From Mobula hypostoma (lineage: Eukaryota), in contig NC_086108.1 in NCBI RefSeq assembly GCF_963921235.1, forward strand, positions 75,394,001-75,458,000: a DNA stretch of 64,000 nucleotides, in the 5' to 3' direction. The notes beneath the pieces are model-generated. The model had not been told where the DNA came from and did not search any database. It was given only the letters and a program-made list of their open reading frames with translations. The position numbers and the translations under genes are program-made. The stretch's first letter is position 1. Every line of letters begins with the position of its first letter. Positions 4,352 through 61,905 of this stretch are shown here, piece after piece.

Positions 4352-4579
4352 ATTGTAAACACAAAATAATCTGCAGATGCTGGGGCCAAAGCAACACTCA
4401 CAACACGCTGGAGGAACTCAGCAGGTCGGGCAGCATCCGTGGAAAAGATCGGTTGACGTTTCAGGCCAGAACCCTTCGTCAGGACAGTCCTGACGAAGGG
4501 TTCTGGCCCAAAATGTCGACCGATCTTTTCCACGGATGCTGCCCGACCTGCTGAGTTCTTCCAGCGTGTTGTGAGTGTT
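4352..4579. mobile_element. Palindromic mini Penelope-like insertion inside the Gypsy integrase
   Basis: 93-bp inverted arms 4393-4485 and 4487-4579; 12-bp TSD TCATTAAATAAA (4340-4351, 4580-4591); removing it restores integrase WEVSLNKVVYAY. Confidence 0.9.
4452..4485 (-). ncRNA. Minimal type-I hammerhead ribozyme motif (core intact, stem I weakened)
   Basis: Minus strand reads GUC-CUGACGA-A-GGG-UUCUGG-CCU-GAAA-CG-UC-AAC. Confidence 0.55.
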
Positions 4580-7010: not shown

Positions 7011-7024
7011 GCTGTAAATCTTCA

Positions 7025-7865
7025 CCAAAACACACAAAATTCTGGAGGAACTTAGCAAGACAGGCAGCATCTATGAAGGGGAATAAACAGCCAACATTTC
7101 AAGCTGAGACCCTTCATCAGGACTGGAAAGGAAGGGAGAACAATCCAGAATACGTGTGGGTCCAAGGGCAGGATCCCTAAATGTTAACTTGCAGGTTTAG
7201 CTGGTAATAAGGAAGACAAATGTAATATTAGCAGTCATTTCAAGAGGACTACAATATAAAATCAAAGGTGTAATGCTTGGATTACAAAACATTGGTCAGA
7301 AAACATTTAGAGTATTGTGAGAAATTTTAGGCCCCTTATTGGAGAGGGTCCAGAGGAGATTCACAAAAATGATCCCAGGAATAGAAGGGGTAACATATGA
7401 GAAGCACTTGATGGCTTTAGGCCTATACTCAGCGGATGTTAGAAAAATGATGTGGGGTTTCATTGAAACCGACCGAATATTGAAAGATCCAGATCAACCA
7501 GACCCAATGGGCAATGTGGCCTAATTCTGCTTCTATACCTTATAGTCTAAGAAGTACCACCTTGCAGGTGATAGGTGAGACCAGCTGAGGGGAAAGTGAT
7601 AGGTGGAAGCAGTAAAGGGTTAAAAAGAAAGAATCTAATCAGAGAAGACAGTGGACAATGGAAGAAAAGGACAGAGGAGGGGAGCCAGAGGGAGGTGATG
7701 GGAAGGTGAGGAGAAGAAAAGAGATGAATGGAAAATGGAAAATGAGGGGGAGGGGGGTAGTAATTACCAGAAGTCATGTTCATGCCATCAGACTGGAGGC
7801 TATCCTTATGGAATATGAGGTGTTGCTCTTCCAACCTGAGTTTTATCTGTTCTAGACAGGTTGGG
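7025..7865 (-). mobile_element. Penelope-like element 3' fragment, interrupted by a CR1 piece
   Basis: GIY-YIG C-terminal remnant KLRLEEQHLIF..SLQSDGMN on minus strand; decayed hammerhead/pLTR at ~7030-7125. Confidence 0.75.
7155..7547 (+). mobile_element. CR1 LINE 3' fragment
   Basis: ERVQRRFTKMIPG motif and CR1-type 3' tail. Confidence 0.8.
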
Positions 7866-7899
7866 CTATAATGGTAACAGGACTTGGATATTCCATGGG

Positions 7900-9110
7900 A
7901 CCACACGTTCCCAAAGAAAGTAATTGTGACATCAGTCAGGTTTGTCATGGCTGCAAGAGGGCAGAGGTAAGGAATAATTATTAATGGAGTGGCACACAAA
8001 AAATGAAAATGCAAATATTCATCTATTGCAGACAGAAAGATGATAAAGACAATATGTTTAAGGACTCTATATTACTTCAGAAAGCCAATCCACCTTAAAG
8101 AAGTATATTGATACTGCTGCACATTGGTCTGATGTGGACCGGGACGTGTGTTAGAACTACCTCAATCAATTTCTACTGAAGCAGAGCAAAATGATGTGGG
8201 CACATCTGGAAAAGAGATTCTTCAGATTATGTGGAGGTAGAATACCAGCCACAAACCAATCTTCCGTCCTTGGACTTACTTTACACTGCACGCTGTCGGA
8301 GCAGTGCTGCCAGGATAATCAAGGACACGACCCACCCAGCCAACACACTTTTCGTCCCTCTTCCCTCTTCCCTCCGGGAGAAGGCTCAGGAGCTTGAAGA
8401 CTCGTACGGCCAGATTTGGGAACAGCTTCTTTCCAACTGTGATAAGACTGCTGAACGGATCCTGACCCGGATCTGGGCCGTACCCTCCAAATATCTGGAC
8501 CTGCCTCTCATTATTTTTTTGCACTACCTTACTTTCCATTTTTCTATTTTCTATTCATGATTTATAATTTAAATTTTTATATTTACTAATTATTACTATT
8601 TTTTAATATTTTTAGTATTTTATATTTGTAATCCAGGGAGCGGGAAGCGCAGAATCAAATGTCGCTGTGATGATTGTATGTTCTAGTATCAATATAGTAT
8701 AACAACATAGAGATCACAAACGCTGATGGATCTGAGTTACTAGAAACCATGGTAACCAAAGATTGATAGATACCAAACCACAACTGGTATAGATCACACA
8801 AAGCTTAAAACATCTCTCATCCAGCCGGTGTCCTGCATCTCAGAACTATTTTAAAGCGCTTCACTATACCATCAATTTCAGATGAAGTGTAGGTTATTAA
8901 CTATTATTGATTAACAGTGTAGATTATGAGTGATTATATACATTTAGGAACTGACCTTACCCATGATGTAATCTACAATAACAAATGATCATAGAAGGTT
9001 TTCATAATTTGATTCTAGATGTCATATGACTTGCTCAAAGAGTAGAATGAAGGCAAGCTGCCATCCTAAAGAGGACCGATGTAAGTAGTATGATGGTATT
9101 GGGTATGCTG
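7900..9110 (+). pseudogene. Very old Gypsy (Mag-like) protease/RT-start remnant
   Basis: YIDTAAHWSDV (aspartic protease DT[G/A]-like) ...LKQSK...VEVEYQPQT, resuming after the Rex1 insertion as NADGSELL; resemblance only, heavily degenerate. Confidence 0.35.
8258..8695 (+). mobile_element. Rex1/Babar LINE 3' fragment
   Basis: AARIIKDTTHPANTLF..LPS, GRRLRSLKTRTARFGNSFFPTVIRLLN, followed by AT-rich 3' UTR. Confidence 0.85.
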
Positions 9111-18600: not shown

Positions 18601-19494
18601 GTCTGTGTCAAGAAAGACCTCAATCAATTTACACAGATTTGAAGATCAAAAGGGGAAAAAAATCAGAGATTTAATGATTTCAAAAGTGTTCACAGAAAGT
18701 CCACATATGAAATTAACATTGCAGTTTTTCAAAAACAATCAGAAGTTAATTAAATCATTTAGAAGTTTCAATTTGTTAATATTTAGGGGGAAAATCTTGC
18801 TTTTGCCCTCTTAATCTTGTATCACAATACTCCTAAATAGCCCAAATCTTATTATATGTTACCATCAAACCTCAGCATAAACCTCAGGATAAACCTCAGA
18901 ACCTTTAAAAAAATTACTGGAGTCACATCCAACTAACAAAATGAATTACAGTAAAACTTCAAAATTTTATCTCAAAGGATTAAGGAAGTGTCAAAATTGC
19001 TGTTACTCAAGTCTCACCATTAAGACAAAATATTACTTTGTGATCTTTTCCTGTCATACAAATGCCAAATAACATGATCACAAGCATTATTTGATGCAAA
19101 TCTTCACTGCACGAATTGTAGCTTCTAGTTCACTAAACGCTATTCCTTTCTGATAGATAAACAATCCTCTACTTTCAGGATTTCCTTCCTGACAGGGGAT
19201 GTGGATGGGACGGAATTCAATTCAGCATCTGGTCTATCTTAACGTGCACTGTATTTCCAATGATGGGATGGAATAAGCAACGCTGCATTAGAAGTTATAA
19301 CTTTGAATCTGTAACAACAACACTTCAGTTACAAAATATAATAATAATGAACTGAATTTCAAGGTTATATTATCATAATCTGCAAGTGAATTCGGCTGAA
19401 AGTTAACACTTCACTTGCGGTTTGAAATGATTCAAAAATTGTTGACGGGTAACTTGTCCTTCTGAGTATAGCTAACAATCTGTTTACTAATTTA

Positions 19495-24625: not shown

Positions 24626-26992
24626 GCTATGACTCTTTGAATAAGAAATGCCAGCGAACACTTAAGAAGGAAATCAGGAGCGATAAAAGAAAACACGAGG
24701 TTGCTCTAGTAAATAATGTGAAAGAGAATCCTAAGGACTTCTACAGATACATTAAGAGTAAACGGATAGCAAGGGACAAAATTGGTCCTCTGGAAAATCA
24801 GATTGGTAATATATCCTTAGAGCCAAAAAATTGGGGGTGATCTTAAATGGAGCCTTTGCATCTGTACTTACTTGGGAGATGGACACAGAGTCTATAGATG
24901 TCTGGCAATGCAGCAGCGAGGTCAGATTACAGAGGAGGAGCTGTTTGCTGTCTTGAGGCAAATTAAGTTGGATAAATCCCATGGGCTGACAATATGCTCC
25001 TTCAGACCCTGTGGGAAGCATGTGCAGAAATTTCCGGGGCCCGAGCAGAGATATTTAAATCGACCTTAGTGACAGGAGAGGTAGAAGATTGGAGGATAGG
25101 CAAAGGCTCAAAACATAAGCCAGGAAATGATTGTCCCTTATATCATTAGTATGCAAGTTATTGGAAGGTATTCTAAGGGACCAGATATATAAGTATTTGG
25201 ACAGACAGGGACTGATTTGGGATAATCAACATGGCTTTGTGCATGGTAAGTCGTGTCTTATCAATTTTGTAGAGGTTTTTGAGGAAGTTACCATGAATGT
25301 TGATGAAAGTAAAGCAGTGGATGTTGTCTACATGGACTTTAGCAAGGCCTTTGACAAGGACCTGCATGGGAGGTCGGTCAAGAAGTTTCATTCGCTTGTC
25401 ATTCAAGATTAGGTAGTAAATTTGATTAGTTATTGGCTTCATAGAAGAAGCCAGAGAGTGGTTATAGATGGCTTTCTTTCTGACTGGAGGCCTGTGACTA
25501 GTTGTGTGCTGCAGAGATCAGTGCTGTGTCCATTGTTATTTGTCATCTATATCAATAATCTGGATGATAATCTGTTAAACTGGATCAGCAAATCTGTGGA
25601 TGACACCAAGACAGGGGGCGTAGTGGACAGTGAGGAAGGCTATCATGGATTGCAGTGGGATCTGGACCAGCTGGAAAAATGGCAGATGGATTTTAATGCA
25701 GACAAGCGTGAAGTGTTGCACTTTGGAAGGACCAACCAGGGTTGGATTTACCGGTGAGCAATAGGACACTAAAGAACAAAGGGATCTGGGAATAAAGATA
25801 CTTAGATCCTTGAAAGTAGCGTCACAGGTAGGTAGGGCTGTAAACAAAGCTTTTGGCACATTGGCCTTCATAAATCAATGTATCGAGTGCAGGAGTTGGG
25901 ATGTTATGTTGAAGTTGTATAAGACGTCGGTGAGGTCTAATTTGTAGTATTGTGTGCAGTTTTGGTCACCTACCTGCAGGAAAGATGTAAGTAGAGCTGA
26001 AAGAGTCATGAAAAAGTTACAAAGATATTGGCAGGGCTTGAGGACCTGAGTTATAGGGAAAGGTTGAATAGGTTTGGACTTTATTCCCTGGAACGTAGAA
26101 GATTGAGGGGAGATTTGATAAAATTATGAGGAGTATGGATAGGGTAAACGCAGGCTGGCTTTTCCATTGATGTTGGGTGAGACTACAACTTGAGGTCATG
26201 AGTTAAGGGTGAAGAGTGAAACAAATTAGGTGAGAGTGTGGAACGAGCTGCCAGTAGAAATGGTGGATGCAGGATTGATTTCAACATTTAAGAGATATTT
26301 GGATATGTACATGGATGGAAGGGGTATGGAGGGCTGTGGCCTAGGTGCAGGTCAATGGGATTAGACAGTCTAATGGTTTGGCACAGACTAGATGGGCTGA
26401 ATGTCCTGATTCTGACCTGTAGTGTTCTATTATTCTAACATAGAGCGCAGCATACAATGCAAATCAGATCAAAGGAAGTTTTTACAAAGGGTGACTTTGT
26501 AAATTTCTACTATACGAGAAGCTTAGGCATCACATTCAATAGCACAATTACTGTGCTCGGAGGTGTTTTCAGTCCTGTTTTAGAGAGGACCGAGGAAAAC
26601 TGGTTAGTTACAAGACAGTTAATGAGGACAAGGGACACATAGAGGAATCAGGAGGAGGAAAAAGATTGGGGGGTAGGGGGAATCAGCTGAGCTTCAGAGA
26701 TCCGTGATTGGCTGCTGTGTGGTGTGTTGTGCAATGACTGCAGAGTCAGGTAAGTTTTGAACAAAGGGCGACTTCTTTTAGCCATCTCCCAGAATTCCAC
26801 AGGGTGCAACCTGATCGGGCAGATTTCCTAATAAAAACTTGCTTCTGGATGAATAGCAATCATTGCCCAGGCACCAGGCTGATGAAAATGAAATTTTCTG
26901 TGTAGCATTAGCATCCGTATTTCGGAACCGTGCCTTAGGATGCCATTATTGGCATACAGGTACCTCTGTGCAACAATGCATCACACACTCGG

Positions 26993-28264: not shown

Positions 28265-28960
28265 CTTCGGCTTCAAATCCATAGCTCCCTGTAAAGTGAC
28301 AGCACAGGAAGACTGGATGGTGAAGAAGGCCTATGCCTCCAGAGGTCAGGTCATGAAATATATGAGCTGTGATGTCACGTGGTAATTTTACAAAACATTA
28401 GTTAGACTGCACATGGGAAACCGTGTGCATTCTGGTGACCACACAATAGGAAGGATCTAAATATCCTGATGAATGGTCTCAATCCGAACTGTCAAGTGTT
28501 TTTTTCCATCGATAGGTACTGCCTAACCTACTGAGTTCCTACAGCACTTTGTGTGTTTTGCTCTGGATTTCAGCATCTGAAGAATTGCTTGTATTTCTAA
28601 TGAGGCTGGAGAGGATGCAGAGGAGATTCCCCTGGATGTTGCCTGGATTGGTGGACTTTAGTTATGTGAATAAGTTGGACAGGCTGCCTTTATTTCCCCA
28701 GAGCAAAGAAGGCAGAGGCATATATAATTATAAAAAGCATAGCTTGGTTAAATAGACAGAAACTTCTTACCATGGTAAATTGAAGAGGAAGAACCTGAGG
28801 GCATTTTTTTTCCCTTAAAGAACAGAATGGTTGATAGCTGAACTCGCTGCCAGAGGAGACCGTGGAATCAGATTCGATTACTACATTTGAATAGGCAAGG
28901 CAGAAAAAAACATGGATGTAATGTGAGTAAAGGTTCATCATGGCCTGTTTCTGCGCTGTA
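28265..28960 (+). mobile_element. CR1 3' fragment containing a short PLE end (~28463-28590)
   Basis: LERMQRRF..MLPGL; insert starts CCTGATGAA (decayed hammerhead) and ends CAGCATCTG. Confidence 0.7.
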
Positions 28961-29094: not shown

Positions 29095-30820
29095 CACGTC
29101 ATCTGTGGGAAGCACCTTGCAAACTTCAGGTAGATTGTGTAGTGTACATGCTCTGGGAAGCTGAAAAATCTGGTCACCTGGACCAGATGGACTACACCTA
29201 AGGGTTCTGAAAGAGGTAGCTGAAGAGATTGTGGAGTCATTAGTATTGATCTTTGAAGAGTCACTAGATTCTGGAATGGTTCCGGTAGATTGGAAAATGG
29301 CAAATATCACTCCACTCTTTATGAAGGGAGGGCAGCAGAAGAAAAATAGAGGGACATGCTGTAGGGTAATTCCAGGCAGTTTCTGGAGTAGATTACTTTG
29401 TCAGCACAACATTATGGGCCAAAGGATCTGTGATGTGCTGTAGAGTTCTATGTTCCAAGAAAGGAAAATTTAGGCCAGTTAGCCTGACTTCAGTGGTTAG
29501 GAAGATGTTGGAGTTCATTTTTAAGGATAAGGTTTTGGGGCACTTGGAGTCACATGATAAAATAGGCCAAAGTCAGCATGGTTCCTTAAGGGGAAATCTT
29601 GCCTAACAAATCTGTTGGAATTCTTTGAGGAAATAACAGGTAAGATAGATAAAGGAGAGTCAATGGATGTTGTTTACTTGGATTTTCAAAAGGCCTTTGA
29701 CAAGGTGCCACACATGAGGCTGCTTAACAAGATAAGAGTCCATGGTATTACAGAAAAGATACCAGCGTGGATAAAAGATTGGCTGATTGGCAGGAAACAA
29801 AGAGTCTGAATGAGGGGGTCTCTTCTGGTTGGCTGCTGGTGTCTAGTGATTTTCCACAGGGGTTGGCATTGGGACTGCTTCTTTTCACGTTATATGTCAA
29901 TGATTAGAGTGATGGAATTGATAGTTTTGTGGCCAGGTTTGCAGACAATACAAAGATAGTGGAGAGGCAGGTAGTGTTGAGGAAGCAGGGAGTCTGCAGA
30001 AGGACTTAGACAGATTGGGAGAATGGGCAAAGAAGTGGAAGGTGGAGCATAGTGTAGGGAAGTGTATGGTCATGCATTTTGTAGAAGGAATAAAGGTGTG
30101 AATGATTTTCTAAATAGGGAGAAAATTCAAAAATCAAAGGTGCAAATGGACTTGTGAGTGCAGGATTCCTTAAAATTTAACTTGCCAGCCGAGTTGATGT
30201 TAAGGAAAACAAATGCAATGTGAGCATTAGTTTCAAGAGGACTAGAATACAAAAGCAAGGATGTAATGCTGAGGCTTTATAAAGCATTTGTCAGACCACA
30301 CTTGGAGAATTATGAGCAGTTTTTTGCCCCTTATTTAAGAGAAGATGTGCTGGTTATGCAGAAAGTCCAGAGGAGATTCATGAGAATGATCCCAGGAATG
30401 AAAGGGTTAACATATGAGGAGCGTTTGATGCCTCTGGGCCTGTTCTTGCTAGAGTTGAGAAGAATAAGGGGGAACACATTGCAACCTGTCAAATATTGAA
30501 AGGCCTAGATAGAGTGGATGTGGAGAAGAGCTTCCTGTAATGAGGGAGTCTTGGACCAGAGGGCACAGCCTCAGAATAGAGGGACATCCATTTAGAACAG
30601 ATGTAAGGAAAAATTTCTTTAGCCAGTGGGTGATGAATCTGTGGAATTCACTGCAAAAGACAGCCATGTAGGTCAAGTCATTAGGTATATTTTAGGCAGA
30701 GGTTGATAGGTTCTTGATTAATCAGGGCATCATAGGTTATGGGGAGAAGGCAAGAGAGTGGGGTTGAGAGGGATAATAAATCTGCCATGGTGGAATGGTG
30801 GAGTATTGGTCTTATGGTTT
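29095..30820 (+). mobile_element. CR1 LINE RT region, degenerate (short CR1-tail insertion ~29347-29456)
   Basis: [38 protein letters not shown]. Confidence 0.9.
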
Positions 30821-30959
30821 GTGGTGCTAGAGAATGAATGCACTATTCTGTGGTTCTTTAATTGAGTATTAGGGGTAATTAAGAAAAGCTGAGGAAAATT
30901 GTACTTTTTTTTGTGGCCACAGCTATGTTTCTCCCTCCTCTCAACAAAATTACAGTTGT

Positions 30960-31090
30960 GTGGTAACTATCCTTCCTTGTCTCTATTAACCTCTCTCTGT
31001 CCTTTTACATACCTGTCTCTAGCTTTTGATCTAGTTGATCACATCACCCTTTCCTATTACCATTCCTCTGATATTAGTCAGATGAGATTG
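30960..31090 (+). mobile_element. Ancient L2 LINE remnant
   Basis: LSLAFDLVDHITL resembles the L2 RT motif LDLSAAFDTVDH. Confidence 0.4.
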
Positions 31091-32029
31091 CCCTTGCCTA
31101 TCTCCTGCCCTCCTAATCCCATCACCGAGAATCACCTGTGACTATTAATGCCCATACATCTGCACTATTTCTCACCCATATTCTCCCTCGTTGACATCAG
31201 TACATACTCATCAAGGGCACCTAGTTTTATTTCATCTTCACCATTCTTGAGACCTTCAAGCTGCAGTTTGCTTTTCAACATCCAATGGTAAATGAGCATA
31301 AATTTCCTCTAGCACCAAAGAGATGAAAGCCAATGAAAGCCAACAATCCCTCCCACAAACTCCATCATACTGCAATAATTCTGCCCGTTACCCAGCAGCT
31401 GTCTGATGCTGATCCAGGTCATTTACAACATTGGTATTCAAGATCATTTGTTGTTATTCTTCAGTGCAGAAGTGTAAAGGAGAATTCTGTTTAATCCTGG
31501 ACCAAACTTGTGAACCTATATCTTCTCTTGCATTATACCTACTTTCAAATCTGGACCATCACCCATTTCTGCACCTCCCTTCAGCAACTGTTGGTACCCT
31601 CACTCATGACTTCACTAAACCCAACTGTCCCAATGCTCTCCTGGACAGCTGCCCACTTTGCCACTCAAATTAAGCTCATGTAAAACATATACTGTTTATA
31701 ATCCAATTTATATCATCCTTTTCTATCATCAATTTTTGCTGAGCTGCATAAGCTCTGTCTGGAAATATTTAAAGTTAAAATTTGTATGCTTATTTTCAGT
31801 GACGACCACTCCCACCTGTATAACCTGACCCAGTTCAACAACCTCCCATGATCTTGATAATACCTCACATTCTAGTATATTTTTGATCTTCCAGTTAAGA
31901 TGTTGCTAACGTATGTTTGTGACAGCTTCTGGGAGTCAAAAAGCTAAAAAATCTAACAAAATCATCGCTAAAAACATCTTTTCTGAGGCAAATTGTGTTA
32001 AATTATCAACGCAAACAATGAAGGGGTAA

Positions 32030-33885
32030 GTGATGACGAGGCGAGTTCGGGAGATGAGCCAAGATGGTGCATTGCAGGTGGAGGTCCGAAGCCCATTTGA
32101 CTGGCCCCAGAATTAGGTTGGATTATTCTGAGTGCTGAAAAGAGAAGTCAGGGCCCAGACGGAGAACATTCAGTGCTCGTTCAATTGACTCAAGAGTGAG
32201 GTTGGATTGATCTGGGCACCGAGCTGATCTGAAGAGCTTGAGAGCAACTTCAGGCTAGACAGTGGAACCCGGGCCTGGAGCGAGTCATTGGGTGGTGTGG
32301 TCATCGTTTAGGTGATGGTTTGTTGCCAAGTTTGCAGTTGATATGAAGATTGGTGGAGGGGCTGGTAGTGTTGAGGAAACAGGTGGGATGCAGAAAGATT
32401 TAGACAGATTAGGAGAATAGGCAAGAAAGTGGCAAATTAAATACAATGTTGGAAAATGCATGGTCATGCACTTTGGTAGGACAAATAAATGTGTGGACTA
32501 TTTTCTAAACGGGGAGAAAATCCAGGAATCTGAGATGCAGAGGGACTTGAGAGTCCTTGTGCAGAACACCCTGAAGGTTAACGTGCAGGTTGAGTCAGTG
32601 GTGAGGAAGACAAATGCCATGTTAGCATTCATTTCAAGAGATCTAGAATACAAGAAGAGGGATGTGATGCTGAGGCTTTATAAGGCACTGGTGAGACCTC
32701 ACCTTGAGTATTTTGAACAATTTTGGACCCTTCATCTTAGAAAAGATGTGCTGGCATTAGAGAGGGTCCAGAGGAGGTTCACAAGGATGATTCCAGGAAT
32801 GAAAGGGTTCTCATATAAGGAAAGTTTGATGGCTCTGGGTCTGTACACACTAGAATCCAGGAGGATGAGGGAGGATCTCATTGAAACATTTCAAGTGTTG
32901 AAAGGCCTAGACAGAGTAGATATGGAAATAATGTTTCCCATGGTGAAAGTGTCTAGGACAAGAGGGTACAGCCTCAGGATAGAGGGCGGCCTTTCAAAAC
33001 AGAGATGCAGAAAAATTTCTTTAGCCAAAGCGTGGTGAATTTGTGGAATTTGTTGCCACATGCAGCTGTGGAGGCCAAGTAGTTGGGTGTATTTAAGGCA
33101 AAGATTGATAGGTTCTTGATTGGACATGGCATCAAAAGTTTTGTGGAGAAGGCCGAGAACTGGGGCTGAGGAGCAGAGAAAAAAAATTATTAGCCATGAT
33201 TGAATGGTAGAGCAGATTCGATGGGCCGGATAGCCTAATTCTGCTCCTATGTCTTATGATCTTATGGTCTCGGCCAGGGCTTTTTGCAGCAGTGATGCCT
33301 GGGTCATATTGTGAAGTACAATGCACTGTTTAGACAATTTAAACACCGACCCAGATTGGAGATGAGAGCCAATTTTGCTCGCTTTTTGAGATGTTTACTC
33401 AACTATCTCGGGTGCCAGAGCCTTTCACTGTTCCACTGTTGGGTCAATTTAAACACCAGCCCAGATACACTGAAAAGATCGGCTGTCGGTCAGGACGAGA
33501 GCCAATTTCACTTGTTTTCTGCAGTGGTCTTCTCCATGGCACTGAAGCAATGAAGACTGTCCCAGCTGCTGTGTTCCATGCCCACTAATATGATGCACTG
33601 ATAAGTGAGGCTTTGGGCCTACTCTGGGCTGCTCTGGGGTTCGGATCTGAGGACTCAGTTTTGGTTTGGAATCCTGTTGCCCTTTGCTTCAATTGTTTGC
33701 GTGATTTTATTTCTTTCTCTGGCATATTGCATGTTGATCTTTTATTTTTATTTTTTTCTTTAATTGGGTACTTTTGGGTTTCTTGCTTTGTGGCTAACTG
33801 TGAGCAAGCAAGTCTCAAGTTTGTAAAATTTATACATTCTTTGATAATAATATATGAATCTTGAAATCTTCTTGAATCTTGAAAT
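32030..33885 (+). mobile_element. Non-autonomous retroposon with Rex1-like tail, split by a CR1 insertion
   Basis: 3' end ...ACATTCTTTGATAATAA followed by (GAATCTT)n; left boundary uncertain. Confidence 0.5.
32312..33268 (+). mobile_element. CR1 3' fragment
   Basis: 192-aa ORF VMHFGRTN..LYKALVRPHLEY..ERVQRRFTRMIPG; (TCTTATG)n tail. Confidence 0.92.
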
Positions 33886-34698: not shown

Positions 34699-36370
34699 AA
34701 AAAATCAGTCAGTTACAATGGTCTGCAATATCCTGGACGACTGAATCCACCAGAGATTGCTTCAATTCAGTTTTTCTGGTATCATCTTTGAACTGCAAAA
34801 TGATGCAACAATTAAAAGGTAATTCAATCATATTACCTATGCTTCATATCTGGATTATTCAATGAGTTCTGTCACTCAGTTCTTTCACAATGGTACTGGA
34901 AGTATTGTCCCTTCAAGGAGTTATTGACTTTTCACCTGTAACCATTTCGGACAGTCGTAGAGTCAAACCACAGAAATGGTCCATGTCGCCCACCAGCACC
35001 CATTCACACTATTTTACAGTCAGCCTATTTTATTTTCCATATTCTATCACTCACCTACACACTACAGGCAACTTACAGTGGCCAAGCTGCTTGTCATTGG
35101 GGATCTAGCAAATTAATTATATTAATATTATTGTTACGTTTACTAAAGCACAATGCAATCCTTTGTTTTACATGGCATCCATATATATCATTTCATTACA
35201 ATAGTGCATTGAGGTCGTAAAAGGGAAATCAATAACAGAATGCAGAATGATCAATTACCATCAGAGAGAAAGTGCAGTGCAGGTACACAATAAGTGCAAG
35301 GCCATTCCAAAGTAGATTGTGATGTCAAGAGTCCAACTTGTACGGGGAGGGGGGGCACAATGTGAGGGGGTAACCCATGCCATTACAGAAAGAACTCACA
35401 AACTTCACACAGACCACACAATGTTCACAACCGAACCTGGAATTGGGATGTTGCAAATCCACTAACGTTAGAAAGAGCAAGTCTGTTTGGGAAGAAAGTT
35501 GACTTCTGTCTCCCTCTTTTGCCCTCTTTCATCTAACTCAACCCAAGTTAGGCTCTACCTCACAAAACAGGAAGGACAGTATTCGCAGTATTATGCAAAA
35601 TCACAAATTAAGATGGTCAATTCGATTCATGTACGGGCCCATTAAGGAGTTATGTATACCAGTAGCACAAATTGATAACTCATGCTAATCAACTTACTTT
35701 GATAGCTGTGTCAAGGTAGACTGTAGATCTAAGCTACTCTCATTTAGAGGAAATAGAAACTGTACATTATGGATGTTCACAAGTATATGTACAGATGTTT
35801 GCATTATACCTGCCTCTGGTTATAATCAATTTGAACATTAAGGGAATAGCATTCTTCACAGTGAATAAATGCCTTGCAAATCCATACGTGTCTGTATGGC
35901 CACAGTTCATTTTCCATAAAAGACATTTCTACTGTCCATTTGATACCTTGTGATTAATAAAATATGAGTCTAAGATACAGTATAATTTTCAGAAACAAGT
36001 GGACCATGGCCATTTTAGAGGTCAACATGTACGTAATGAGTAACAGGAACAAAATAAACCTCAAACATTTGGCTTTAATGGAAGCAGGACAAGGAGCAGA
36101 TGTAGAGTCAGCCAAACTCTACCTCATCATTAGCCCCCATTCTGGAACCAGCTCCCAACTACAACCTTGAAATTGCATATTCCCTCTTCATCTAAAAACA
36201 TCTCCTTCTTTAGAATTTGTTATACTCCTCACCAGCACACGGCGCTCCCACTTCCCAATTAAAGTCTGTTGTAAACACGGGGAAATCTGCAGATGCTGGA
36301 AATTCAAGCAACACACATCAAAGTTGCTGGCGAACGCAGCAGGCTAGGCAGCATCTCTAGGAAGAAGTAC

Positions 36371-36406
36371 AGTCGACGTTTCAGGCCGAGTCCCTTCGTC
36401 AGGACT
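36371..36406 (-). ncRNA. Minimal type-I hammerhead ribozyme motif, complete
   Basis: AGUC-CUGACGA-A-GGG-ACUCGG-CCU-GAAA-CG-UC^-GACU; stem I AGUC/GACU, palindromic ACGU stem III. Confidence 0.75.
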
Positions 36407-36704
36407 AACTGAACGAAGAGCTAGTAAGAGATTTGAAAGTGGGAGGGGGAGGGGGAGATCCAAAATGATAGGAGAAGACAGGAGGGGGAGGGATGGAGCC
36501 AAGAGCTGGACAGTTGATTGGCAAAAGGGATATGAGAGGATCATGGGACAGGAGGCTTAGGGAGAAAGAAAAGGGGGAGGGGGGGAAACCCAGAGGATGG
36601 GCAAGGGGTATAGTGAGAGAGACAGAGGGATAAAAAGGAGAGAGAGAAAAAGAATGTGTGTATATAAATAATTAACCGATGGGGTACTAGGGGGAGGTGG
36701 GGCA

Positions 36705-37235
36705 TTAGCGGAAGTTTGAGAAGTCAATGTTCATGCCATCAGGTTGGAGGCTACCCAGACAGAATATAAGGTGTTGTTCCTCCAACCTGAGTGTGGCTTC
36801 ATCTTTACAGTAGAGGAGGCCGTGGATAGACATATCAGAATGGGAATGGGACATGGAATTAAAATGTGCGGCCACTGGGAGATCCTGCTTTCTCTGGCGG
36901 ACAGAGTGTAGGTGTTCAGCAAAACAATCTCCCAGTCTGCGTCGGGTCTCGCCAATATATAAAAGGCCACATCGGGAGCACCGGACCCAGTATATCACCC
37001 CAGCCGACTCACAGGTGAAGTGTCGCCTCACCTGGAAGGACTGTCTGGGGTCCTGAATGGTGGTAAGGGAGGAAGTGTAAGGGCATGTGTAGCACTTGTT
37101 CCACTTACAAGGATAAGTGCCAGAAGGGAGATTGGTGGGGAGGGATTGGGGGGACGAATAGACAAGGGAGTCGCATAGGGAACGATCCCTGTGGAAAGCA
37201 GAGAGAGGACAGAAGGGAAAGTTGTGCTTAGTGGT
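36705..37235 (-). pseudogene. PLE ORF C-terminal fragment: Cys-rich linker plus GIY-YIG endonuclease (177 open codons, no initiating ATG)
   Basis: GTYPCKWNKCYTC linker; GVIYWVRCSRCGLLYIGETRRRLGDCFAEHL..PVAAHF..RLEEQHLIF.LGSLQPDGMN. Confidence 0.9.
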
Positions 37236-37618
37236 GGGAGGAACAACACCTCATATTCCGTCTGGGTAGCCTCCAACCTGATGGCATGAACATTGACTTC
37301 TCAAACTTCCGCTAATGCCCCACCTCCCCCTCGTACCCCATCCGTTATTTATTTATAGACACACATTCTTTTTCTCTCTCTCTCTCCTTTTTCTCCCTCT
37401 GTCCCTCTCACTAACCCACTTGCCCATCCTCTGGGGTTTCCCCCCCTCCCTTTTTTCTTTCTCCCTAGGCCTCCTGTCCCATGATCCTCTCATAACCCTT
37501 CTGCCAATCATTTGTCCAGCTCTTGGCTCCATCCCTCCCCCTCCTGTCTTCTCCTATCATTTTGGATCTCCCCCTCCCCCTCCCGCTTTCAAATCTCTTA
37601 CTAGCTCTTCTTTCAATT

Positions 37619-37654
37619 AGTCCTGACAAAGGGTCTCGGCCCGAAACGTCGACT
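37619..37654 (+). ncRNA. Hammerhead ribozyme motif with core mutation (CUGACAA)
   Basis: AGUC-CUGACAA-A-GGG-UCUCGG-CCC-GAAA-CG-UC-GACU; G8 replaced by A. Confidence 0.55.
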
Positions 37655-38079
37655 GTACCTCTTCTTAGAGATGCTGCCTGGCCTGCTGCATTCACCAGCA
37701 ACTTTGATGTGTGTTGCTTAAAGTCTGTTGTAACTCATTTCAGATCCTCCCATATTCCCAACAACTTTCCCCATCATTCTTCTCCTTCTTCTAGTAAAGT
37801 TTAACAACGGCTGGCCGACCAACTTAGGGTGTGTTACCACCAACTGCTGAGGTAGAGTGTGGAGCAAAGAGACAGGAAGTATACCCACTTTAATTTCTTC
37901 CCCCCCCCCAAAAAAAGCTGATATAATATCAGAATATTTTATGCTTTTCAGAAAGTCAATTACGCACTTATATACATCATGACGATATCCTAACTATCTA
38001 TCCATGTTTATCTGTCTAGGATCTGCATTCAAACAATATATGCTACACCATTTCTTGACAAGTGCACGCCCTAAAAAAT

Positions 38080-38307
38080 GCAACATACATCAAAGTTGCT
38101 GGTGAACGCAGCAGGCCAAGCAGCATCTATAGGAAGAGGTGCAGTGGACGTTTCAGGCCGAGACCCTAATGTTAGTCCTGACGAAGGGTCTCGGCCTGAA
38201 ACGTCGACTGCACCTCTTCCTATAGATGCTGCTTGGCCTGCTGTGTTCACCAGCAACTTTGATGTATGTCGCTTGAATTTCCAGCATCTGCAGAATTCCT
38301 GTTGTTT
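38080..38307. mobile_element. Palindromic mini Penelope-like insertion
   Basis: Left arm 38080-38167 is the reverse complement of ~38185-38272; extra ~35-bp tail on right arm; no clear TSD. Confidence 0.85.
38174..38209 (+). ncRNA. Minimal type-I hammerhead ribozyme motif, complete
   Basis: AGUC-CUGACGA-A-GGG-UCUCGG-CCU-GAAA-CG-UC^-GACU. Confidence 0.75.
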
Positions 38308-38769
38308 GCCACATTATGCAAATTAGTTCTGAATAAGGAATTATTCAACCGAGTATTTCCAATATGTAAATATAACTTCTTCCCTTTTGTTATAGCCATC
38401 TCCCAGTTGAGCTCCCACCATCCTCAAAATTTTATATAGATGTCACCCTTTTTTTCTCTTATCCCAACTTTGTTGCCACGGTGATGGAATAGACTTCTTA
38501 CTTATGGCTTTCATCTCCTCCTTATGCAAAGGCACCACTACATTTACATCCTTAATTTTAAGTGATTGCTTGACTAGAATGTCTGTCACCTTGTTTCCTT
38601 CAACCCCAACATGGACACAGACCCATAAGAAATGGATACATGAGCCAAGACCCTACCAGCAGATGTTGTCCAGTCTCTAGAAAGAACATTTGGCCTTTCC
38701 CCATTATTCAGAACACCTACCAACTCTCATAGGCTCTGGCCTTGTGAAGCAAACTTCCTGTCCCAGAAG

Positions 38770-39639: not shown

Positions 39640-39772
39640 CCCCTGCCAAAGGGTTTCGGCCCGAAACGTCAACTGTACTTTGTTGCATAGATGCTGCCTG
39701 ACTTGCTGAGTTCCTCCAGCATTTTGTGTGTATTGCTCAGATTTCCAACTTCTGCAGATTTTCTCTTGTTTC
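39640..39772 (+). mobile_element. Short PLE 3' end with decayed hammerhead
   Basis: AAGGGTTTCGGCCCGAAACGTC..GATGCTGCCTGAC..CTGCAGATT, homologous to other PLE ends. Confidence 0.75.
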
Positions 39773-41154
39773 CGAATTTAAGGTAACTCACATACCTCCA
39801 AGAAACACCTAAATAGTTTGTATCAAATAACTGTCAGGGATCTTGTCGTTAGTCTATAAAATACTGCACTTCCTTAGGTTAGAATCCTCATCAAGCTTTT
39901 GAAAATAATGTATATTTAAATTGGAAATCATTCCATCTGGTTAAGTATGTTGTCCTCAGGTCAAAGGACAAAGCATTCAAATAGCCCAAAGAGCTGATCT
40001 GCCATGGATTGACCAAGTTTGTTAATTTAAATTATGACTGTGTATTTCCTGCACCTTTTGGATAATGCACAGAGAACACGTTGTATAAGGTGACAGGTTA
40101 CGCAGAAAATCAGAATGCTACGACTCACAATCAAAGTACAACTGTGCACACAAGAAGTGTAAAAAAAACTGCTGTTATCAGTTGAATTTGAAAGAAGGAA
40201 TAAGAGTTATCATTTAGTCTTAGGCATGGGATCCTTTGGGATCTTACTCCTGAAGTTCCACTGAAGAGGAATGATCCATTTTAAAACTGAGGTGTTTTCT
40301 CTGGGCACATTCATCAAAGACATATAAGCTAGAAACAGGGAAAAATCATAAGTATTTCACTGTCCATAGGTCATAGTAGCAGCTTGGAAAGGAACATTAT
40401 GGATTCAGGAAGGTTGCCAAAGTAAGTGTATCATTACTCATGTAAAATTAATATATGGTTTTAGGATGAAAGTCAACAGGAAGTTAGTGTTAACCATCTG
40501 CAATTTCACACAAAATAGTCACATAACCTTAGTTCTCTGATACGTGCATGTGCCTGCTTATGTTGCCATTGGATAGAATGCTGACATGGAAAAATTTTTC
40601 TAACGTTATCCATAATTGTGATAGCCATGCACACTACCAACAGAAGTTAATTGCAGCAATATGTTCATAATCTCCAATGAGGTGGCATTGAAATTGCTGC
40701 TTTGGTGACATGGGGCTAGAAATACTCTCCTTCGAACCAAGCGCAAAAGAGGTCGCACATTGGAACCCGTGTCGATTTGCCACTGGTGAGTGGTTTCCAT
40801 GTCTGCATGTTCTGCAACTGTGTGCCCGCAATGGATTTGTGGAAAACTTTGATTTCCCCGTAAAACATGGGAAACATGAACACCTCTATGATTTCCATCA
40901 CCTGTTGTTGTCAACCAATGCCGACTGGTGTCATGCTGACTACTGAATCTAGACACCACTGGATATTATTGCATTATATCTCAGCTGCTGTGGAAGGTCA
41001 TGTCAAAGCAGAATCAGGCCTAGCGACAGTATTGGGCACTTAGGTTCTCTAGCAGTTTTGTTGATACCTGTGTTTAAGAAACTGCTAGAAGCAAAGGGAG
41101 TCTTCATGCCCTGTGGAGCCGTCCTTGGGCTCGGAAATAACACATTTCTGGAAT

Positions 41155-41697: not shown

Positions 41698-41829
41698 CTG
41701 TTGTGAGAGGATGTGGAGAGGGGTGAGACCTTGTAGACGAATTCTGTTGTGAGAGGATGTGGAGAGGGGTGAGACCTTGTAGACGAATTCTGTTGTGAGA
41801 GGATGTGGAGAGGGGTGAGACGCTGTAGA
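41698..41829. repeat. 46-bp tandem repeat, ~2.8 copies
   Basis: Unit CTGTTGTGAGAGGATGTGGAGAGGGGTGAGACCTTGTAGACGAATT at 41698, 41744, 41790. Confidence 0.95.
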
Positions 41830-41992
41830 TTAATTCCCACTGTTGATCATTGGTATTTGGTTTACTATTGTCATATGTACCAAGATACAGCAAAAAATTT
41901 GCTTTCCATGCCGTCCATAGAGATAATTTCAAAACATAGGTACATCAAGGTAGAACAATAGGAAACACAACAACACAATGCAGAACATACAA

Positions 41993-43744: not shown

Positions 43745-44050
43745 TTATTTATTTATTTGGAGATTATAGTATGGAACAGGCCCTTCCGGCCTAACGAGCC
43801 ACACCACCCAACAACCTACCTACTTAACATCAGCCTAATAACAAGAAAATTTACAATGACCAACTAACCCACTAACTGGTACATCTTTTGACTGTGGGAG
43901 GAAACTGGAGCACCTGGAGGAAACCTGTGTGGTCACAGGGAGAACACAAGGTGTTCTGTGCCTTACGGGCAGCCCCGGAATTGAACTCTGAACTCTGATG
44001 TCCCGAGCTGTAATGGCGTCACACTAGCTGCTGTGCTACCACGGCACCCA
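43745..44050 (-). mobile_element. V-SINE (HE1-like)
   Basis: V-domain complement GTGGGAGGAAACTGGAGCACCTGGAGGAAACC. Confidence 0.7.
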
Positions 44051-45690: not shown

Positions 45691-48600
45691 ATATGTTAAT
45701 AAATGTCAGTCTTTTTGTTCCACTGTGATGTGCACTGCAATGCAAAGGTCTAGCTACATTAGTTAACGCAGGTCTCCCGATCAACTAAACTAATCAGATA
45801 CTGGAAAACATCTAAAAGCAAGTTAAAATGTTAGCTTACTATAAGCCTTCTGCAGTTCTATTACACCAAAGTCTTCAAAAGATATAAAAAATTTGTTTCT
45901 ATGTTACAAGTATATTGAAAATCAAATATCCCGATTACATAGTACAAAAGGAAATGTGATCTACAAAGGCTTATCATGAGCTGACATTTTAAATATATTT
46001 CAGATGTATTCCAATATCTGATTAGTCTAGTTGATTAAAATACCTGCATTAACTGATGTAGCTAGACATTACTCATTCATTTTTAGCACACTTGTCAATA
46101 GTCGTCTATTCTTCTATCATATTCCCAGTGTAGATAAAGTCTCCTCTATTCATATTCCATTCTTTTTTTCAGCATGGAAAAAAATAATCTTTGATAAAAG
46201 TTAATTATGAAACTTGACACCTGTAAAACATAACTCCTTTACAAACCAATCTCATTGTACAACACCATCCTTTCAACAGTGATGGTCCACAACAGAACCT
46301 TAGAAAATATGACCTATTTCCCATATCTTGGGAGCCAGCTCTCACTGAAGAAATATACCAGTGATAGCCTTTGGCTATCTGAAAAATGCTTCAGAGATTT
46401 GGAGTTGAAAAGAATAATAGATAAATCAAAATATAACAGCTTAAGAAACAATAATTGAAGTTTAAAAGCTTGTAAATTCTAGTGAGAACACTGAGGGAGG
46501 CCAACAGATTCCCAGTTTTGAGGCTCTGGAAAAAATAAATCATGTGACATTTTACTGACTTTTGGGTCTAATGCAATAGGAACTCCAAAAATGTTTTGGA
46601 TAATATGTTTGTGTACCAGGAAACCAAGAACATTCAGAGGACAAGTATCCCCTATAAGAGCAATGAGGAAAGTTGATCAGAGGAGAAATTACAGCAATAA
46701 AGCCAATGGAAGATGGAGTGTTTTTTTTACCTGTCAGAAAGTTAAGCATGAAGATTGATGGTATCATATTTTCTATAAAATCAGCAAACAATAATGTTCA
46801 TGGATATTACAATCGATATTATTATTAGCATCATTAATATAAGCTAATTTAACTTTACTCTCTGAATGCTGGAGGGGTTGAATGAATATGATCGTGCACC
46901 TATCATTTTCTACCTGCACTGCACTTCATCTGTAGCTGTTGCACATTATTCCACATTCTGTTATTGCTTTAGCTTGTCCTACCTCAATACACAGTGTAAT
47001 GAATTGATCTGTATGATAGGTATGCAAGACAAGCTTTTCAGTGTACTTCGGTACATTTAATAATAACAAATCAATTCCAATAAGCTGCATACAGTTGTAA
47101 TTAATTATATTTGTAAATTAAAACTTAGAAATAAAGAAGCAATAAAATAAAAGTGCAGAACAAATAAATTTGGATTCTGTATAAGTACATCACGGTTATT
47201 GAATTGTGTCTTTTATAAGCTGTGATTTTAAATATTTACTGCAGCTGACACATAGCCTCTTCAAGCTCTTGCCAACAATCTAGAATGCAATCTCACATGC
47301 AACATTGTTACATGGATTAGATTATGATTATAAGGAAAGTAACATAAACACTGACATTGTTAAGCCAAGTCTAAAAATATGTATATTGAATCTGTCAAAT
47401 TAAATGGCTTACTTTAAAATCCTGTCTTAATTTTACTGCCAAATAAGAAAGTATATTTTAGAATGAGGTCAAATAACAAAGTGAAGGGATCTAAAATGAT
47501 TTGTTACCTTCAATGTAACTTAAAAGGGATTGCAAAATGGTGAGAAAAAGCATTACTTTTAGAAAAATCTAAGCAGGAAAGGTGATTTTATGGTGCCATT
47601 GCATTTAGTAAATTTAATGAAAATCAGTCTCTGAACTAAAAGAATAAAAATGTTGTTATTAAAAGTTGATCTGTACAAAATAAAAACGTTTTTATTAAAA
47701 ACTCTTTATAGCACTATGTAGACAATCTCAAAGGATTTGAAAGAAAGACAAATAGGTTACAATATAGTGCCAAATAATTCTGATAAATTGAGTTGTTCTT
47801 TGTAATTATGATAAATTTAAAATAAATTTATAGCTATTTTGTTCATAATGTGATGCAGACTTCTCAAGTATGCTGTGATATTGAGTGAAATTTGAGCTGT
47901 ATTTATTATGTTTAACCATGCATCTGATGAAAACTGCACCATGATATGTTGCAGGCCAGGTTCTGCCATTACTAACATCACAAATTTAAACAACTTTCAA
48001 TTCATGGTGTCAGTACTGAAGGGAACGAGGGACAACAGTTGTAATTAATTATGATTGTAACCTAAGACCATAAGAAAGCATGGAACAAGAAAACATGGAA
48101 TGTGCCTTTAATACAAATTTTGAACAAAACATTTTTGTGTTTTGTCAACCATGACACAATCACTCATTATTTCAACCACTCCATTTCCATGTCATTACTA
48201 TCATTCATTGTAAGCATAGGTTCCTCAACGATTCAGGTCCATGACAAAAGAACATCTATTATCGATGCATTCTTTAACTGCTAGAAGAGAACTGGGTTAG
48301 GATAAAGCGAGATGATTAAGGTAAATAGACCAATACTGAGAAAAATAGTAATGCTGTCTCTAGATTTTATAGCAATTCCAGATAATGCCTATTAATTAGC
48401 AATGCTTCTCCTCAGACCTATCAATTCCATATTTTGGTATTAAGTTTTTGTTGTGTATTTCAGATAACTAACACTGAATCATTTTCCCTCAAATAAAAAG
48501 CAGTTTACATGTTAAGCTCCAGGAATTTCAGGGAATTGAATAAAATCTGCTCTGTATCCATTGTGCATCCAATTCAAACCAATGTATGATGTTTCAAGTT

Positions 48601-50117
48601 TTTCAAACAACGCAGATGTTTCTTAATTGATCCAACAAATGTTAACTTCTCCTTAATGCCCTAGTGATCCTTAATACAAGTGACACAATGGTAATTGAGT
48701 ACCTATGGATTATTGTAACCCATGGATTCTTACAAATACTTAATTCCTTCCTAACGAAGCAGAGAGCTGCAGTCAAATGAAACGTAGTTCAAAAGGTAGA
48801 GTGTAAAACTGGAAGCCAGGAATTAGCAAGTTTACCCAACAGCTGGTAATTCAATCAATACTTCAAACTGGGATGTCATAACTATTTAACGATATTAATT
48901 ATAAATGGACTATTTAGGAATAGGACAGTCACGTGTGACAAGTTATGCTGCTCTGTTGGTGCTAATCCAAGGGAACATAATATTTCCCTCAACCGAATGT
49001 TTTTACTCTCTCCTTGAGGAGTTGATTCTTGATCGGGTTTAGATTCCCAGTCTCAATCCCACTCAAATTACCAATCTTCATAAGTGATCCTAGGCACTGT
49101 GGGTGGGCTAATTACCTGGGGAGGGGTACTGAATTAAGACAATCCAAGCAACACCTGTTTTTCACACAGACTTGGTATTAACTGTGATGGTCTGATCATT
49201 GCAGCCATAATTATATAACATAGTACAATGGCTGCTTTTCAAGTACTGAGCATGCTCAGAGTTATACAGAGACTTAAACAGGAATTCTCACAATCCTCAG
49301 AATAAGGAAATGTACTAATATAACATTTTGAAAACATAAAAATTCTGCATTTCTTCAAAGTTGCAGATTTGATATAGTGTAGGGAAGTGTATGGTCATGC
49401 ACTTTGGTAGAAAGAATAAAGGCATAGACTATTTTCTAAACAGGGAGCAAATTCAGAAATCAGAGCTGCAAAGACACTTGAGAGTCCTAGTGCAGGATTC
49501 CCTAAAGATTAACTTGCAAATTGTTAATTGGAAAAAAAAACACACCTTTTGATTTTTAAAATCTTGCAGATATGAAGGAGGCTTCCATTTGCACAGTGAA
49601 AGTTGTCCAACATTTCCAAGTATGACAGCACTGGCTGTTGTCTCAAACAGAATTGTTCAGTTTCTTCTCTAATCTTGACATTTTCTGTTTCAATCTCACC
49701 GAGTATTTTAGTACTTTGAACCATGACATGTTGTGTGATGATTTGCAAACCACATAATGCTGTGATCGATTATTTTGTGGTGATCACTTTAAGTGGTTGC
49801 ATGTCATACCGATTTGTTTGCTGATCATGGTTTTTGAATTTCACAGGAATTGTATCACAGGTTCTATCGGTGCTAATCTGAATTTTATTTTTGCTTCTCT
49901 GCTTCTGCTTCGGGCTCTAATTAAAAATAAAAGCAAACTGGTGGAAAACTGTAATAAGAGCAGGTCAGGCAGCAGCCATGGAAAGAGAAACATGGCTAAA
50001 GTTTCAGGTCAAGGACCCTTTCGAACTGGGAAAGTGATTAAAAAGGAATTAGTTTTACATTGAATCAGTACTTTATTAAAAACGAGAAGGGGAACTGTGA
50101 AGGTGAACGATGTAAGA

Positions 50118-53289: not shown

Positions 53290-53535
53290 TTTACTTTTTA
53301 TTTTATTTAATGACACAACACAGTAACAGGCCATTGTGATCCAATGAGCACACACTACACTTGTGTGGTCAATTGTCCTGCTAAACCATTGATCTTTAGA
53401 ATGTGGGAGGAAACCGGGTCACCTGGAGGAAACCCACGTGGTCACGGGGAGAATGTATAAACAGAGCGGGAATTGATGCTGGGTCTCTGGTACTGTAATA
53501 GCATTACACTGAATGCTACACTACTGTGCTGTCAC
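53290..53535 (-). mobile_element. V-SINE (HE1-like)
   Basis: GTGGGAGGAAACCGGGTCACCTGGAGGAAACCCAC. Confidence 0.7.
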
Positions 53536-53579: not shown

Positions 53580-54165
53580 AGCTACTAATGCAGAAAATCT
53601 GAAAAAAAAACCAAAAAAAAAATTGCTAGAAACACACAGCAAATCAGGCAGCATCTGTGGGAAGACATACAAAGTTATTGTGTAAGGTTTCAGATTGAAG
53701 ATAATCTATCAGAGCTGGGAAAGAGAGAAAAGAATCTGCTTTCAACTGGCAGGGAGGGACAAATAAGACAAAAGTGCTGTCTTTGAAAGGAAGCTTCCAG
53801 GGCTGCCATTGGGAATAAATAATGGTGGGGCTCTGGTCGAATGGGTGAGCAGGGGACAGTTAAGAGGGTAGTAATACAAACAAAAAGCATAATATGATAC
53901 AAATAACATGGCTATAGGGTGTCCCTCACAGATCGGGCTGTGCTAATGAAGAGAGAAAAACTGGGCCAATATCACAATTGGATGACCAATTGCAGCAATG
54001 ACCAGTTATGATACAGATAGAGAAAGTAAGTAACCTGAAAAATAAACAGAAAGCTTAAAGTGCCGGAAAACTGAAAGAAGTTACCTGAAGTTGGTGGAAT
54101 CAATACTGAATCCAGGAGGCTACAACATACCCAGATGGAAGATCAGATGCTATTCCTGTAGCTTA
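53580..54165 (-). mobile_element. Old Penelope-like element 3' fragment
   Basis: pLTR-like CAGGCAGCATCTGTGG; GIY-YIG end KLQE*HLIFHLGML*PPG on minus strand. Confidence 0.55.
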
Positions 54166-61149: not shown

Positions 61150-61905
61150 ATTAGACTTGTCTTCATCAATTGAGTGTAAAACACAGAATATCGTGTTGCA
61201 GCTATACAAGGTGTTGGTTAGGCCATAGTTGGAGTACTGTGGCTGTTTGTAGTCACCACATTGCAGAAAGGATATGGAGTCCTTGGCATGTGTATAGAAG
61301 ATGTTCACCAAGAGTCTACCTAAAAGGAACCTGGTGGCAAATTTGGATCATTTTCTGCATGGTGTCAGAGTTTACGAGAAAATCTGATAGGAGTGTATAG
61401 AATGACGAGAGGCATAGACAGAGTAGATAGTTGTGAGCAACCAACAGGAATTCTGCAGATGCTAGAAATTCAAGCAACACACATCAAAGTTGCTGGTGAA
61501 CGCAGCAGGCCAGGCAGCATCTCTAGGAAGAGGTACAGTCAACGTCTCCGGCCGAAACCCTTCGTCAGGACACTTGTGAGGATAGTTGTGAGTCTTTTTT
61601 TCCCCAAGGGTGGAAAGGTCAAATGCAAGAGGATATACAGTAAGTTTAAGATGAGAGGAGGAAAATTTTAAGGAGGTTTGTGAGGCAATCTGGCAGTGTA
61701 TTCCAGTCAACTAGGGAGAGTAGTAGGGTGACTGGAACATGCTACCGGGTAGGAGCAGATTCATTAACAAATTTTAAGGAGAAAATGTCAGGGCATCAAA
61801 GGTTGCAGGAAGAAGGCAGAGAATGCTGTTGAGAGAGAGAATAAATTGGCCATGATGGAATGGTAGAGCAGACTGGATGGACCAGCTGTCTTAATTCTGC
61901 TCTTA
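61150..61905 (+). mobile_element. Old CR1 3' fragment containing a mini-PLE
   Basis: LQLYKVLVRP*LEYC; YRMTRGIDRVD. Confidence 0.75.
61438..61580 (-). mobile_element. Mini Penelope-like insertion (pLTR end only) with decayed hammerhead
   Basis: 12-bp TSD GATAGTTGTGAG (61426-61437, 61581-61592); PLE homology stops at ...TTCGTCAGGAC, followed by filler ACTTGTGAG. Confidence 0.88.

Follow-up and report, generated by a model that had tools for sequence, protein, structure and literature searches.

Two short stretches of Mobula hypostoma DNA read as complete minimal hammerhead ribozymes, and the locus raises the question whether these are self-cleaving RNAs where they now stand or the remains of something that was active elsewhere. 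The analysis covered 64,000 nucleotides of contig NC_086108.1 (positions 75,394,001 to 75,458,000), hereafter the window; coordinates count from its first nucleotide.

Hammerhead motifs in the window

Both 36-nt motifs named in the preliminary description were found with exactly the letters claimed, and were absent from 100 shuffles. Each contains every part ascribed to it: four of four stem I pairs, the CUGACGA box, the extra A, three of three stem II pairs, a 6-nt loop, the GAAA box, the palindromic ACGU and the GUC triplet.

36371..36406, minus strand: hammerhead motif 1, intact minimal type-I, predicted cut between 36375 and 36374
38174..38209, plus strand: hammerhead motif 2, intact minimal type-I, predicted cut between 38205 and 38206
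37619..37654, plus strand: copy of the hammerhead carrying G8>A (CUGACAA), predicted to be dead from position scoring and depth comparison

Across the window, a core pattern gave three exact matches and a 34-nt pattern with up to three mismatches gave seven, against none in 100 shuffles for either. The decayed copies listed earlier are all present (7089-7124, minus; 28464, plus; 37619, plus; 39641, plus; 61537-61571, minus), but the one given as a single copy at 4452-4520 is a head-to-head pair, 4452-4485 on the minus and 4487-4520 on the plus strand. At E ≤ 0.0033 a profile search retrieved 14 arms, including four faint remnants (49959-50021, 53624-53671, 57488-57555, 60176-60247), and added a partial arm at 38079-38167 on the minus strand. 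When nine copies were scored strictly position by position, two were complete. Scored for CUGANGA, GAAA and a NUH triplet, four of the nine had intact catalytic boxes, and six kept a loopless palindromic helix III ACGU. The intact motifs have 4/4 helix I and 3/3 helix II pairs, an unpaired base before helix II and the G10.1 pair; among the other copies we found G12>A, A14>G, broken palindromes or a broken stem I. The CUGACAA copy, proposed earlier as a natural control, is sound for that purpose, the family majority being G at this position (74-78% of depth).

An Rfam search of the window returned no hammerhead match at E ≤ 1, and thus none at the Rfam hammerhead threshold. Sub-threshold Rfam matches to miRNAs and scaRNAs fall on hairpins and were rejected. 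A crude exon scan of the window gave 14 candidate host exons.

In architecture the motifs resemble the minimal hammerheads (min-HHRs) described from the pseudo-LTRs (pLTRs) of metazoan Penelope-like elements (PLEs), including the fish elements Xena, Poseidon and Neptune (Cervera & De la Pena 2014, PMC4209133). Shared are the type-I topology, both boxes, the missing helix III loop with palindromic 15.2-16.2, the unpaired base between 9 and 10.1, G10.1-C11.1(U), the 4-bp helix I, and the occurrence as scattered single copies and opposite-strand pairs. Helix II, at 3 bp, is unlike the 7-8 bp of the Schistosoma families in that paper, one supplement file of which yielded no cartilaginous fish terms.

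The carrier element

The earlier attribution to PLE pLTRs with minimal type-I hammerheads of the published dimer-type architecture (PMC4209133) was borne out by related PLE proteins and by motif scoring. The motif lies about 300 nt downstream of an endonuclease stop codon and about 100 nt from the element 3' end, which places it in the pLTR.

36275..37239, minus strand: long arm, a 5'-truncated PLE end with endonuclease C-terminus, pyrimidine-rich spacer of ~300 nt, hammerhead and ~100-nt 3' region including a ~40-nt tail
36705..37239, minus strand: GIY-YIG endonuclease remnant (ORF) with VIY..CxxC..YIG core, CCHH and an upstream C-x4-C-x2-C linker, without reverse transcriptase (RT)
7011..7933, minus strand: old long copy with endonuclease remnant (7763-7933) and hammerhead remnant (7089-7124)

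The frame of the endonuclease remnant spans 181 codons from stop to stop on the minus strand, ending at 36705, and a conserved Arg is replaced by Cys. In a protein comparison with 15 matches among 255 candidates, it was 68-85% identical over at least 95% of its length to six Mobula/Hypanus PLE proteins and 52% identical to one Chiloscyllium protein. Pfam gave no match on the remnant itself, and GIY-YIG matches on its relatives only below the cut-off. The telomerase-like RT is absent from the window copies and stands upstream in close relatives (P0004, P0007, P0008); no full-length PLE copy lies in the window. A C-terminal GIY-YIG domain with CCHH and a CX2-5CxxC linker characterizes Neptune and Nematis PLEs (PMC8557442). 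Typed by these endonuclease and linker features, the carrier is a PLE of the Neptune/Nematis type. Heterogeneous loose ends at 36273-36283 mark the 3' terminus of the family.

Parts of the family also surface in predicted host genes. The ray gene models P0016, P0017 and P0018 (an uncharacterised protein, a STARD3NL isoform and a METTL8 isoform) contain a peptide from the hammerhead-tail segment, across which the +1 frame is open for 46 codons, and several further predicted host gene models include pieces of the PLE ORF. No paper on ray or shark PLEs was found in a literature search that lacked most subscription papers.

Anatomy of the insertions

The copies form solo or inverted insertions:

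36259..36274, plus strand: target-site duplication of the large insertion, left copy, 16 bp, exact repeat of 37718-37733
37718..37733, plus strand: target-site duplication of the large insertion, right copy, 16 bp, exact repeat of 36259-36274
37233..37717, plus strand: short inverted arm without tail, matching the long arm at 450 of 480 aligned bases
38080..38167, minus strand: second insertion, short inverted arm without tail, beginning at the A before stem II (+8), 85 of 88 bases matching its partner
38171..38309, plus strand: second insertion, long arm with tail, beginning 7 nt upstream of CUGA
4352..4579, no single strand: fold-back insertion of a second subfamily, long arm (minus) and short arm (plus) meeting at 4486, both from helix I
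61438..61571, minus strand: solo 134-nt copy from helix I with 9-nt filler, inside a LINE remnant, core with GAGA and C17U
39642..39773, plus strand: decayed solo copy of the second subfamily from helix I (profile search)
28464..28597, plus strand: decayed solo copy of the second subfamily from helix I (profile search)

Positions 36275-37717 are a single insertion flanked by the 16-bp target duplications. Its arms are joined through an imperfect 7-nt overlap at 37233-37239, and the long arm extends about 40 nt beyond the short one at the 3' end. Duplications of 12 bp flank 4352-4579 (4340-4351 and 4580-4591) and 61438-61571 (61426-61437 and 61581-61592). Target duplications of 12-16 bp were thus found for three of the seven insertions examined and not for the other four, among them the second insertion (38080-38309); in 2991 random window pairs a length of 12 was reached once and 13 or more never. 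All three inverted insertions (36275-37717, 38080-38309, 4352-4579) combine one long, tailed arm with one short arm. No window insertion holds two motifs on the same strand.

All four features of the published layout of EN+ PLE insertions, namely 5' truncation, an inverted upstream arm, a one-sided tail of 30-40 bp and a target duplication (Craig et al. 2021, PMC8557442; Arkhipova et al. 2013, PMC3846280), occur in the window. The junction palindromes have been read as self-priming on an antisense template (PMC3846280). Double priming would account at least as well for the long and short arms seen here. In vitro, both strands of the target are extended by the protein of an Anolis PLE, which initiates at two internal RNA positions delimiting the tail (PMC11167929). 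By likeness to this element, PAc, the element protein would nick both target strands, reverse transcription would be primed at two internal sites about 40 nt apart, and the resulting long and short arms would be joined head to head; two priming sites would thereby explain the unequal arms. Insertion in vitro does not require the hammerhead of PAc (Frangieh et al. 2024, PMC11167929). PAc belongs to the Penelope/Poseidon clade and has an ORF starting in stem II, whereas the window carrier is of the Neptune/Nematis type.

Any read-through transcript of the three inverted insertions would contain near-perfect double-stranded RNA of 88-480 bp, which may serve as an editing or small-RNA substrate.

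The window is rich in other repeats. A fairly intact LINE RT frame of 442 open codons lies at 9734-11062 on the plus strand (RVT_1, E 4e-21), and decayed LTR-retrotransposon pol remnants at 556-3654 (plus) include an RT-RNase H match at 3061-3654. CR1-like LINE remnants are numerous (19472-22166, 25136-25757, 29959-33170, 54271-55879, 63176-63735), with related pieces at 29959-30768 and 32353-33170 lying 2401 nt apart. One repeat occurs three times (43857-43944, 53366-53453, 60444-60531) and is presumably a V-SINE central domain. At 41698-41835 and 45745-46070 there are, respectively, three units of a 46-nt tandem repeat and a MITE-like 105-nt inverted repeat with a 116-nt spacer.

Conservation of the motif as a structure

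The exact family pattern had no match in viral or in metagenome contigs, which therefore added no copies from rays. A looser pattern retrieved 121 metagenome loci, from 2 of the 64 parts of the collection, and 15 of these loci carried a match to a related PLE endonuclease. Covariation, which the preliminary description had made a touchstone of the motif, was evident between families: across 14 representatives, hand-picked after viewing and retrieved with a common search pattern that left stem I free, 80% of stem I was paired with 18 double changes. None of 500 shuffles scored as high, and slid controls reached at most 49%. After automatic clustering, 15 of 25 clusters were paired against 4.3 in shuffles, several of the clusters being stragglers of one family. 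On this comparison, the hammerhead is real as a structure at the family level.

The looser pattern also gave 19 matches in prokaryote genomes, eight with 3/3 stem I pairs. At least L125 and L135 among them encode a PLE endonuclease and resemble host DNA; none of the 19 entered any count. Contigs with animal-type PLE hammerheads or PLE protein matches in prokaryote bins (L125, L135, L123, L127, L130 and L136) are likely misbinned host DNA.

The 5' ends of copies pile up just upstream of the ribozyme

Start positions were counted from the C of CUGA, which puts the cut site at +29. Arms in the window start at -7, -4, -3, -3, -2, -1, +8, -390 and about -837, and the copy at 7124 is long; none of ten begins at the cut site. 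Five of 13 independent insertions start within the 8-nt interval -7 to -1 (p ~0.01, allowing for the choice of interval). The template for insertion was likely uncleaved RNA, since the whole ribozyme is kept in the copies and no arm starts at the cut.

Promoter signals are read here by the usual distance from TATA to start and the common initiator consensus. The following element immediately precedes helix I:

36407..36413, minus strand: putative initiator-like or 3'-splice-site-like element with A at -8 from CUGA (sequence scan)

In the ray subfamilies, hexamers resembling an initiator place an A at -8 and -4; the 296-nt spacer contains three such hexamers. Neither the ray family nor the small families showed a canonical TATA at the matching place; TATAAA matches at -47 to -59 derive from the inverted tail and were discarded.

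A second PLE family could be followed in the metagenome contigs (L001-L121, e.g. L028, L043, L046, L048, L063 and L117). It shares the hammerhead core but has two 3' termini and a stem I that is 3 bp long and differs in sequence. In this, the main metagenome family, whose tail sequence is unrelated to that of the ray family, 94 arms were found in 88 loci. In 84 loci the upstream sequence was 25 nt or longer; the start lies between 0 and -9 in 63 of them (with a peak of 35 at -6 to -8), between -10 and -23 in nine and further upstream in 12. Starts inside the motif were excluded by the pattern, the peak lies off the pattern edge, and identity is down to 17% at -10. Head-to-head inverted partners occur at 34 of the 88 loci, and 37 of 40 partner starts fall between -7, the measuring limit, and +11, with none at +29. 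At -38/-37 the majority sequence of the long copies is TATAAA, and 7 of 13 match TATAWA exactly. This TATAAA, found in one family only among those compared, lies 30-31 nt before an A at -7 that is initiator-like in one subfamily. A putative TATA and initiator have also been described in a rotifer pLTR (PMC3846280).

The new observation is that 5' ends pile up upstream of the ribozyme in an unrelated PLE family as well, and there about 30 nt behind a TATAAA. The pattern suggests run-off of the reverse transcriptase at the transcription start on uncleaved RNA. An extra cap-derived G at the 5' edge of the metagenome family received no support, being present in 2 of 16 clearly assigned short arms, with 10 of 16 keeping the templated C. 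We found no paper that links a 5'-edge pile-up to a promoter, in an incomplete literature search without bioRxiv supplements.

It is also conceivable, if unlikely, that the pile-up marks a 3' splice site and that the spacer of ~300 nt is a pLTR intron ending at helix I. A pyrimidine tract and YAG stand directly upstream of helix I in both subfamilies. In the old copies at 53613-54164 and 7011-7933 (both minus), the ORF stop has a GT resembling a splice donor, and a pyrimidine tract with CAG comes just before helix I, as in an intron-like spacer. The Drosophila virilis Penelope intron ends at helix I (PMC4209133), and the point of entry into the element is about -7 in two predicted ray proteins. 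However, the metagenome family shows the pile-up with no AG in the 50 nt upstream, helix I is not joined to an upstream exon in any window copy, and no such intron is among the 15 joints listed of 226, in contigs that drop rare forms. Moreover, a spliced template alone would not stop reverse transcription at this place.

Very unlikely, in our estimate, is a separate non-autonomous family, SINE-like or of retrozyme monomers, in which the ~135-nt copies have a fixed 5' end and are not truncation products. The clustered starts would fit it, and animal retrozymes derive from PLE pLTRs (bioRxiv 10.64898/2026.07.22.740005). Non-LTR retrozymes, reported in one chondrichthyan, share with the window copies a PLE-related type-I hammerhead, but are arranged as same-strand tandem arrays (bioRxiv 10.64898/2026.07.22.740005; see also PMC7229834), of which the window has none. 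Both subfamilies possess long copies with an attached endonuclease (36705-37239 and 7763-7933), short arms are partnered with long arms, starts differ by several bases, and the same pattern recurs in the unrelated metagenome family. Passages of PMC8782182 and PMC6155905 yielded nothing further.

Activity of the window copies

The preliminary description had taken the motifs for self-cleaving RNAs; for these copies, that is not supported by our predictions. In a read-through transcript, 35.0 and 27.7 of the 36 bases of the two intact motifs are predicted to be paired with the antisense arm. The two motifs lie on opposite strands, and no insertion offers a same-strand pair. The monomer hammerhead fold has -4.8/-4.6 kcal/mol against minima of -10.6/-10.0, and the dimer fold, although drawable with 12 intermolecular pairs, has -7.1/-6.7 against -26.9/-28.3, in energy models that ignore tertiary contacts and proteins.

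The copies further bear the marks of CpG decay without compensation. Cells in CpG columns depart from the window majority in 22 of 90 cases and all other cells in 18 of 226 (p=2.4e-4). Among the non-CpG cells, 3 of 81 catalytic and 15 of 145 other ones are changed; this contrast is not significant (p=0.12) and is confounded by subfamily differences and motif-based picking. Within the window, the covariation seen between families is missing, as none of seven pairs shows a compensatory change across nine copies. Young copies diverge by 6-11%, so two intact 36-mers among five arms need no selection.

In three runs guessed to be RNA and possibly from other species, 19,225, 13,274 and 11,008 family contigs fell on this stretch. 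In the same runs the flank bins 36150-36226, 37767-37843 and 37921-37997 had zero depth, and no positions with many contig starts or ends were listed, contigs being unable to show RNA ends. The DNA run X21 had only 7 reads on the stretch. Dimer cleavage was reportedly seen by Luense et al. in 2017. A single min-HHR showed no cleavage, and dimers low cleavage (PMC4209133), while in Anolis PAc cleavage occurred only with protein, and RNA-seq ends at the cut site were absent (PMC11167929).

It is highly improbable that the two intact motifs work as ribozymes where they stand and cleave element RNA or host pre-mRNA as trans-dimers with other family transcripts. Both are letter-perfect, family sequence is very abundant in the three runs and a dimer can be drawn, but its fold is strongly disfavoured, antisense arms are predicted to pair with the motifs, the motifs are on opposite strands, three flank bins lack depth in runs perhaps from other species, cleavage by published min-HHRs is poor even for dimers (PMC4209133), and the intact pair needs no selection at the divergence seen.

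We are confident instead that these are minimal hammerheads of PLE terminal repeats in 5'-truncated insertions, probably from double-primed and uncleaved templates, predicted to be trapped in antisense hairpins and probably inert, likely functional in the parent elements and then subject to neutral decay. Inertness of the two intact motifs is likely on the folding models, with the caveat that a transcript starting inside the long arm would be without the antisense arm; abundant family RNAs may also form trans-dimers with one another. The covariation of stem I between families makes it likely that the motif works in active parent elements, cleaving as a dimer or with the help of protein; once inserted, it would decay neutrally.

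Implications

Taken by themselves, the window motifs would be a further dead example of a motif described in 2014 (PMC4209133). The side result, a pile-up common to families with a TATA-to-start distance in one of them, weighs more. As a tentative generalization, somewhat less probable than its negation and drawn from sequence comparison, we propose that in EN+ PLEs of distant animals pLTR transcription starts 4-8 nt upstream of the hammerhead core, that reverse transcriptase runs off there, and that the ribozyme is a cap-removing switch. The ribozyme would then be the first ~40 nt of the element RNA. Reverse transcription primed at internal tail sites would run off the 5' end and yield mini-insertions of 100-140 nt and head-to-head palindromes, and the start of transcription would thereby be recorded in the genome. 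Cleavage would serve to take off the cap, not to produce the template, and the ribozyme would act as a switch of translation or stability. The role of PLE hammerheads has been called unclear (PMC8557442), and the pile-up bears on two parts of it: whether the capped end of the RNA carries the ribozyme, and whether the templates are uncleaved.
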